A stretch of DNA of 64,000 nt, from assembly GCA_951406725.2 (NCBI GenBank), contig OX597822.1:75950001-76014000 (forward strand). The letters are read 5' to 3'. The first letter of the stretch is position 1. The number at the start of each line of letters is the position of its first letter. A program made the translations under genes and the position numbers. This document shows, piece by piece, positions 55,686 to 56,501 of the stretch. Under the pieces are notes generated by a model. That model made no database searches. It worked only from the letters and a program-made list of their open reading frames with translations, and was not told the DNA's origin. The DNA comes from Octopus vulgaris. Lineage: Eukaryota.

Positions 55686-56062
55686 TATCTCAGACCTCTT
55701 AGCATGTAACCTTCTATAGAAGCCCCGTTGGTTGTATATAGAGGATGATTCAAAAGTCTCCATACATAGGAACAAATTTATTCTTTTAATAATAAATGGT
55801 TTATGTGATCCCCTAGATCCCTTGATCTGACCCCTCTTGATTTCTATCTTTGGGGGCATTTAAAAGGCATGGTTTATCGCGGAAAGATAAAAGACATAAA
55901 TCACTTGAAGGAATGCATCACCAACCCCTTTGCACATGTATCGCCAGATGTGCAATTACGAGTTCATATTGAGTGGGGTAAACGTATTGCAATGTGTATT
56001 CAAAACAATGGTAACCAATACAGCCTGTTAAATAATTTTTTTTAAAAATGTTCTTGTAATCT

Positions 56063-56361
56063 ACGTAAAGTATAATAGCCATCTCAATATGGCTAACAAC
56101 TAAGGGTGGGTGTTACTGTAGCTTTTAGCCCCAGGAGATCATCGTCTCCAGCTGGCTTTAGGCACACTATCTGTGCCCTTATGGTATTTGCAAAGGGTGG
56201 TCATCCCTCTCGTAAGCCTAAGTGATACGCACGGACTGCAGTTTCGAGGTATTTGCCTCTTGTCAACGCACGGTAATCACCGGTTTACGATGAAAAGGAA
56301 GACCTGTTTGCAGACCTCCCTTAGTGGTTAGCCATATTGAGATGGCTATTATAATTTACGT
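56063..56361 (-). mobile_element. 44-bp inverted-repeat-bounded element containing a hammerhead ribozyme
   Basis: IRs at 56063-56106 and 56318-56361; 13-bp direct repeats TGTTCTT(G/A)TAATC at 56049-56061 and 56405-56417. Confidence 0.8.
56228..56272 (-). ncRNA. minimal type I hammerhead ribozyme, U3-A8 core variant
   Basis: CGUGCG-UUGACAA-GAGG-CAAAUA-CCUC-GAAA-CUGCAG-UC-CGUGCG; palindromic stem III ACUGCAGU, GUC site. Confidence 0.8.
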
Positions 56362-56501
56362 TGTCGAGCGGTTACTGTTTACATTTCGTTCAGAGATTTA
56401 TTATTGTTCTTATAATCAGTTTCTTATAAAAGAATAATTTTTTCCTATGTATGGCGACTTTTGAATCACCCTATAGATCTCCCTCAGTGGTGTAGTTTTA
56501 C

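Follow-up and report, generated by a model that had tools for sequence, protein, structure and literature searches.

The insert described here is a truncated, mirror-image copy of an abundant 355-nt non-coding repeat that carries a hammerhead motif, and it lies inside a DNA-transposon relic in the window (the whole stretch of 64,000 nt of octopus DNA analyzed in this work). We consider it highly probable that a 355-nt non-coding retrozyme is present here as two arms and that its insertion in trans was likely the work of a Penelope-like RT plus GIY-YIG endonuclease. The evidence comes from the layout of the insert, the ends and flanks of its relatives in the genome, and the hammerhead core states that the related units carry.

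Layout of the Window Copy

Unit positions are numbered from the base following the predicted cut (u1). On this numbering the insert consists of arm 1 on the minus strand, which runs from u277 through the ribozyme to u173, two intervening bases, and arm 2 on the plus strand (u127-218). Arm 1 is 96% similar to a natural tandem copy. The features are as follows.

55736..56478, plus strand: host DNA-transposon relic, internally deleted, with 43-nt inverted ends (55736-55778 and 56436-56478)
55809-56042, plus strand: open stretch of 78 codons in the host relic
56049..56061, plus strand: target-site duplication, left copy, 13 bp; occurs singly at empty host-repeat sites
56063..56312, minus strand: arm 1, 250-nt 5'-truncated unit copy (u277-355, then u1-173); 3' end at fixed end 1
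56076..56095, minus strand: hairpin just inside the arm 1 3' end; its stem covaries between subfamilies
56222..56280, minus strand: type I hammerhead motif with U3-A8 core, extended stem I and palindromic stem III; predicted cut 56234/56233
56313..56314, no strand: head-to-head junction, two bases separating the arm 5' ends
56315..56406, plus strand: arm 2, 92 nt of the unit (u127-218), 5'-truncated and inverted relative to arm 1; 3' end at fixed end 2
56315..56361, plus strand: stretch of arm 2 overlapping arm 1 in unit coordinates; forms a 47-nt inverted repeat with 56063-56109
56362..56406, plus strand: 45-nt "tail" confined to arm 2, spanning the interval between the two fixed 3' ends
56405..56417, plus strand: target-site duplication, right copy

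The direct repeat at 56049-56061 and 56405-56417 has one mismatch in 13, as the earlier note on this DNA had described, and its right copy overlaps the end of the element by 2 nt. In three of four other aligned copies of the host repeat the duplication motif occurs once and uninterrupted (the fourth copy is more diverged there), so the direct repeat is a true target-site duplication. The host repeat itself gave 317 first-look candidates in the genome. The earlier note had named the host a Tc1/mariner relic. A DNA-transposon relic it is; the name is presumed from a motif, and the 78-aa host fragment gave no match in Pfam or PDB.

The inverted repeats, noted before as 44 bp long and bounding the element, are present as 47 nt of 94% complementary sequence (56063-56109 and 56315-56361), but they are the overlap of the two arms and not the boundary of an element. 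The window copy is a dead end, because it has only one ribozyme and is devoid of u219-276. The hairpin at 56076..56095 is likely part of an enzyme-binding or start signal.

The 355-nt Unit and Its Family

The unit is ~355 nt long (array period 355-357 nt), is devoid of a long reading frame and contains one type I hammerhead. Its size falls within the 150-450 bp of animal non-LTR retrozymes, and the longer arms run back into the unit. The copies appear to be free of LTR structure, and their duplications are longer than 4 bp. In the 2.8-Gb genome the insert gave 3426 first-look candidates, 40 of which were scored; this figure is not a copy number, because another repeat also carries a piece of the unit. 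The mapped set used below comprises 177 arms at 109 loci, obtained from two DNA searches and one exact-pattern search, and part of it was picked by likeness to the window copy.

Tandem forms include a 10-unit head-to-tail array (L177, G000:C4:13620760-13624380) and two dimers (L132 and L155), so that at least two consecutive hammerheads are present in family arrays and dimers and absent from the window copy. The layout had been thought distinct from that of tandem retrozymes, a view that is not supported: the same unit forms the 10-unit array and the dimers. The array L177 starts at u110, ends at the first fixed 3' end and has three or four unit types interleaved; a mixed template or a later local expansion is therefore needed to explain it. 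When the unit was folded as a circle, it was more stable than 60 shuffled sequences (z -4.4), a model result that lends weak support to a structured RNA.

Three further observations concern the family and its surroundings. A frame of ~30 codons passes through the hairpin and the tail at u152-245 in one locus (L028) and in a sister subfamily (L190-L217), and it stops at the same place in the two subfamilies, both read by eye; this is perhaps a remnant of the start of a partner, or simply the outcome of a low indel rate. A very abundant ~400-bp repeat (L269-L288, e.g., G000:C1:452864), which makes up most of the first 100 of 5836 matches to the tail motif, bears a miniature two-armed insertion of the hammerhead-unit family, in which inverted u108-174 is followed by about u200-218 and the duplication is ~11 bp long. 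It is one retrozyme scar amplified by a different transposon; the ends of the ~400-bp repeat resemble those of a Helentron/HINE element. At one locus (L019:1374-2112), copies of the U3-A8 and C3-G8 subfamilies stand tail to tail and flank one TA run.

Insertion Signature

The ends of the mapped arms are polar. Two sites ~46 nt apart account for the 3' ends of 151 of the 177 arms, 89 at u165-177 and 62 at u212-226, with 26 arms ending outside both; the 5' ends are scattered across the whole unit. Among 49 two-armed insertions both ends could be classified in 36, and 13 have an end outside the two fixed sites. Use of one site per arm was found in 33 of these 36, against about half expected (p 1e-7). 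Target-site duplications of at least 8 nt flank 29/36 two-armed insertions versus 32/173 shuffled pairs, and 27/55 one-armed insertions versus 22/271 shuffled controls. The variable-length duplications suggested for checking in the earlier note were looked for and found (mostly 11-14 bp); several lie in TA runs, and those are uninformative. The 3' flanks are 84% AT, and 65 of 151 start in a TA run. Divergence between the arms of one insertion is 5.3%, compared to 7.2% between insertions, and is the smaller value in 26/32 cases, as expected if both arms came from one source.

According to the available parts of published work, Penelope-like elements insert as an inverted 5'-truncated copy with a 30-40-bp tail at one end and a bias for microsatellites (PMC8557442), and they generate 8-10-bp target duplications (PMC3846280). 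Work in vitro showed that the tail spans the interval from one internal start site to a second and that both target strands are cut and extended by a protein predicted to be a dimer (PMC11167929). We concluded that the two-armed layout of the octopus insertions is this published Penelope "inverted pLTR plus tail" signature.

The earlier note had proposed a separate element delimited by inverted repeats of its own, the ends of whose RNA pair into a closed fold. The window insert does fold far better than shuffled sequence (z -10.9), and several copies are of similar size. Such a biologically meaningful closed fold is nevertheless contradicted by the copies as a group: in 32 two-armed insertions with at least 40 shared positions the arm overlap ranges from 41 to 352 nt, the place of the junction within the unit changes from copy to copy, 59 insertions are single-armed with no inverted repeat, and the unit forms tandem arrays. 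Since the overlap varies and 59 insertions have one arm only, the inverted repeat is a by-product of insertion and not a terminal repeat, and we regard the bounded element as very improbable.

A DNA transposon with inverted repeats at its termini, such as a MITE, was also considered and rejected, with practically no probability left to it. The copies are short, non-coding and numerous and have inverted ends, as a MITE would, yet the ends are polar (fixed 3', scattered 5'), the inverted repeat of the window copy stops 45 nt short of the right end, and the duplications vary in length where a fixed short one would be expected. The view of the insert as a non-coding, retro-mobilized element and not a MITE, already taken in the earlier note, is supported by the unit, the polar ends and the duplications.

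Search for a Penelope Partner

The copies could also be pLTR fragments of an autonomous Penelope element that lost the coding part by 5' truncation, in which case there would be no independent non-coding element. In the available text of PMC4209133, dual opposite-strand minimal hammerheads 100-700 bp apart are interpreted as probable truncated Penelope elements, and coding Penelope elements in the octopus genome also bear U3-A8 motifs downstream of the frame. Against this, long arms run from unit into unit (49/151 exceed one unit length, 355 nt), and no shared sequence except the unit was found upstream of one-armed copies, the sister subfamily giving the same result. Nor do the unit copies contain an RT plus GIY-YIG frame, as an autonomous Penelope element would. 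The fragment explanation is thus largely refuted for the sampled copies, and we consider it improbable.

A non-coding retrozyme mobilized in trans, the reading we prefer, calls for a coding partner. Many intact RT plus GIY-YIG frames are present in the genome. Sequence shared with the unit was detected by BLAST at 0/30 GIY-YIG loci, 150 of 6136 candidates having been scored. The coding parts of nine longer Penelope loci gave no unit match (one holds an unrelated decayed insertion), and local alignment of 13 regions downstream of Penelope loci to the unit scored below shuffled sequences. Among the loci sampled, no coding partner was found by the tail motif or by shared upstream sequence either.

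Some Penelope-like elements of this genome deserve a description of their own. A young element at L171:834-4925 (G000:C16:33.68 Mb), with many similar loci, has a 303-aa upstream frame, a 765-aa RT plus GIY-YIG frame and, ~870 nt beyond the stop of that frame, a U3-A8 hammerhead; open frames of 781 aa recur many times among 148 matches. Downstream of the GIY-YIG frame, other Penelope families (L106, L111, and L112) carry hammerhead-like motifs whose cores vary further: one A3-U8 core in L111, and U3-A8-like motifs with an altered G12 region, read by eye, in L106 and L112.

Hammerhead Motif and Its Core States

A motif scan of the 64-kb window returned the minus-strand hammerhead and one other motif. 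The former stands where the earlier note had placed it, with the U3-A8 core and the cut predicted at 56234/56233. Stem I is formed by 56272-56267 with 56233-56228 (two G-U pairs), followed by the core at 56266-56260 with U3 and A8, stem II at 56259-56246, G12-A14 at 56245-56243, and the palindromic stem III at 56242-56235. The second, hammerhead-like motif lies at window positions 5805-5880 on the plus strand and has the canonical C3-G8 pair; its stem II is long and its stem III palindromic, and it is possibly the end of another Penelope-like element.

The motif had been called a minimal palindromic hammerhead. The palindrome is indeed present in this copy, but stem III takes several forms, and this exact one occurs in only 35 of 103 motifs. 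Beyond an internal loop, stem I is prolonged by five pairs (99.6% paired across 47 copies), and because of this extension the hammerhead is larger than the minimal form and near canonical size. Rfam gave no hammerhead match for the window at E<=1, nor any match for four loci that include C3-G8 sisters; the miss is therefore not specific to the U3-A8 core. Single-sequence folding recovered stems I and II and not the open core.

Of 110 arms in the subfamily of the window copy, 103 have U3 and 101 have A8. A sister subfamily with ~79% similarity has C3-G8 and differs in stem II and in the stem III palindrome. Across 47 aligned motifs the structure is paired in 91.9% of cells, compared to 22-56% in slid controls, and the 3-8 pair is U-A in 26, C-G in 15, U-G in 2 and other in 4, counts that represent few independent events in rows chosen by a pattern that fixes most core letters. 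From these sequences, we concluded that U3-A8 is fixed in the subfamily and that its covariation against the C3-G8 sisters is real. The U3-A8 swap is rare but already published: in the available parts of the sources, about 1300 U3-A8 motifs are given for Penelope elements of Schistosoma (PMC4209133), and further natural hammerheads with U3-A8 are described, as is activity in vitro (PMC3088659).

Other 3-8 states have also spread, with C3-G8, U3·G8 and C3·A8 all found in sister subfamilies. Lineages with C3-G8 have a C·A mismatch at the stem II base; counting by hand through the first 100 of 128 matches gave 92 with C3-G8. Motifs with G10.1-C11.1 were tallied by hand for the first 100 of 566, giving U-A 54, U·G 37, C·A 8 and U·U 1, and in a subfamily with 235 exact matches and short branches U3·G8 was counted by hand in 77 of the first 100. 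A stem I U·C mismatch is present in 61/110 arms. Where G8 is present, positions 7-8 make up a CpG, and decay of U·G may therefore have produced some of the U-A copies. Distant subfamilies (L249-L253, L289-L318; L257-L260, L267) have 6-nt stem III palindromes; one of these subfamilies is U3·G8 in most copies, another is C3·A8 in near-identical copies, and they have the same two 3' ends as judged by eye.

Two trees built from ~160 columns outside the ribozyme (73/148 and 53/188 motifs) cluster the 3-8 states, and in the second a short-branched U3·G8 group lies inside U3-A8 (98/92). The directions of core change disagree between the trees and depend on the root, and no direction is claimed.

Template and Cut Site

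The predicted cut site is passed by 118 of 151 arms, and by 4 of them twice. Because arms run through it, the template is an uncut multimer or a ligated circle. Only 4 of 122 5' ends lie within 4 nt of the cut site, compared to 32 in the next 60 nt, i.e., there is no excess; this missing peak is neutral if the templates are circles. None of the records that matched was listed as RNA. Eight public runs were compared as assembled contigs, a form in which neither ends nor strand nor circles can be seen. In presumed RNA runs the depth falls upstream of the cut site; this carries no information on cleavage, because the same drop is seen in the far larger X15 and X17 (assemblies of unknown kind, probably DNA); part of the high depth stems from the other repeat that holds a piece of the unit.

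Cleavage may perhaps be dispensable, as the arms read through the predicted cut site and no ends pile up there. Carried further, the hammerhead would be a passenger whose cutting is no longer needed, and linear read-through transcripts of tandem copies would serve as templates, a possibility that we take seriously but hold to be on the unlikely side. It would suit the spread of U3·G8 (77 of the first 100 of 235) and C3·A8 (8 of the first 100 of 566), the C·A mismatch at the stem II base of C3-G8 sisters and the lack of a 5'-end pile-up at the cut, together with two reports, as far as their available parts go: ribozyme mutants left insertion in vitro unimpaired (PMC11167929), and 8/9 frog retrozyme dimers failed to cleave (bioRxiv 10.64898/2026.07.22.740005). 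A relaxed passenger fits poorly, however, with the invariance of U4, G5, A6, A9, G12-A14 and the U-C before the cut in 47 copies of two lineages, an alignment pre-filtered by core pattern (the unfiltered tally at those core positions is 104-110/110). Stem II and the stem III palindrome also change on both sides, which argues for selection on the fold, in few independent events.

For a retrozyme pasted in trans, we propose the following course. Multimeric or circular unit RNA would be bound near the terminal hairpin by a Penelope RT-endonuclease, which would nick both target strands with a stagger of about 11-14 nt. From each nick, cDNA would be primed at one of the two internal start sites, and both cDNAs would stop early and be joined head to head at their 5'-truncated ends (junction offsets in the copies are -15 to +13); what the arms have in common would then be seen as an inverted repeat. 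Slow cleavage by the hammerhead, probably acting as a dimer, would reduce multimers to single units and allow circles to form, and pasting would use templates intact at the cut site. Several findings speak against this model: none of the sampled coding loci shared sequence with the unit, 13 of 49 two-armed insertions and 26 of 177 arms have an end outside the two sites, part of the sample was picked by likeness to the window copy, 5' ends are not in excess at the cut site, the tail of ~46 nt is longer than the published 30-40 nt, and the interleaved types of L177 do not fit one pass round a single circle.

A more specific and rather speculative version, for which we would claim only a modest chance, is that two fixed starts on a single small RNA circle are used by the Penelope enzyme for copying onto both strands of a staggered cut, and that the family has been selected for a slowed ribozyme, the youngest-looking subfamily having spread with the U3·G8 wobble. 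If true, every successful subfamily would have a weakened core (U3-A8, U3·G8, C3·A8, or C3-G8 plus C·A), and slow cutting would preserve the circles and multimers used as templates.

Relation to Known Elements and Significance

As far as the available parts of PMC7229834 and bioRxiv 10.64898/2026.07.22.740005 go, the octopus unit resembles animal non-LTR retrozymes in being non-coding with one type I hammerhead per unit, in size (mussel 350-390, axolotl 330/350), and in the occurrence of monomers, dimers, arrays, long duplications and a proposed Penelope partner. It differs in its U3-A8 core, with sisters in three other 3-8 states, and in its two fixed 3' ends and two-armed insertions, which are not described for retrozymes in those parts of the texts. 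Cleavage and circles, which are predicted here for the octopus unit, have been demonstrated for animal retrozymes.

With the pLTR insertions of EN+ Penelope-like elements (available parts of PMC3846280, PMC8557442, and PMC11167929) the unit shares the inverted 5'-truncated copy, the tail at one end, two internal starts, AT-rich or microsatellite targets, ~10-bp duplications and a hammerhead upstream of the 3' end. Unlike those elements, it has no coding frame, is joined to itself and has a tail of ~46 nt. The 3-8 covariation is the same as in the Cercyon-type Schistosoma hammerheads (PMC4209133) and in natural core variants (PMC3088659), and a palindromic stem III suited to dimer folding and closely spaced opposite-strand motifs are likewise described for Schistosoma in the available text (PMC4209133). 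In contrast to the minimal form with a 7-8-bp stem II, the octopus motif has a stem I of 6 bp plus extension, a stem II of 4 bp and a 6-nt loop, and is nearer to canonical type I sizes. Chlamys MRC1 (PMC8557442) is another non-autonomous Penelope-type element with pLTRs and head-to-tail multimers; the Chlamys elements, unlike the octopus unit, resemble their partner at the 3' end, and their clade is reported, in the available parts of that paper, to be devoid of canonical hammerheads.

Our literature search, which covered main texts, returned nothing on the octopus unit family, on a one-end-per-arm rule in retrozymes or on the spread of U3·G8. Lunse et al. 2017 may already list U·G or C·A cores.

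Judged by its sequence, the unit has the defining features of animal non-LTR retrozymes and appears to work in the manner of a Penelope pLTR insertion. The family bears on the way in which animal retrozymes are copied and on the role of the hammerhead in Penelope elements. Retrozymes as non-autonomous derivatives of Penelope have been proposed in PMC7229834 and argued for in bioRxiv 10.64898/2026.07.22.740005 (available parts of both texts), and the link has so far consisted of co-occurrence and sequence likeness. The window copy itself is an ordinary dead-end insertion; the family to which it belongs adds a Penelope insertion scar on a protein-free retrozyme, and the four natural 3-8 core states in related units form a series for asking whether cleavage rate matters for spread.
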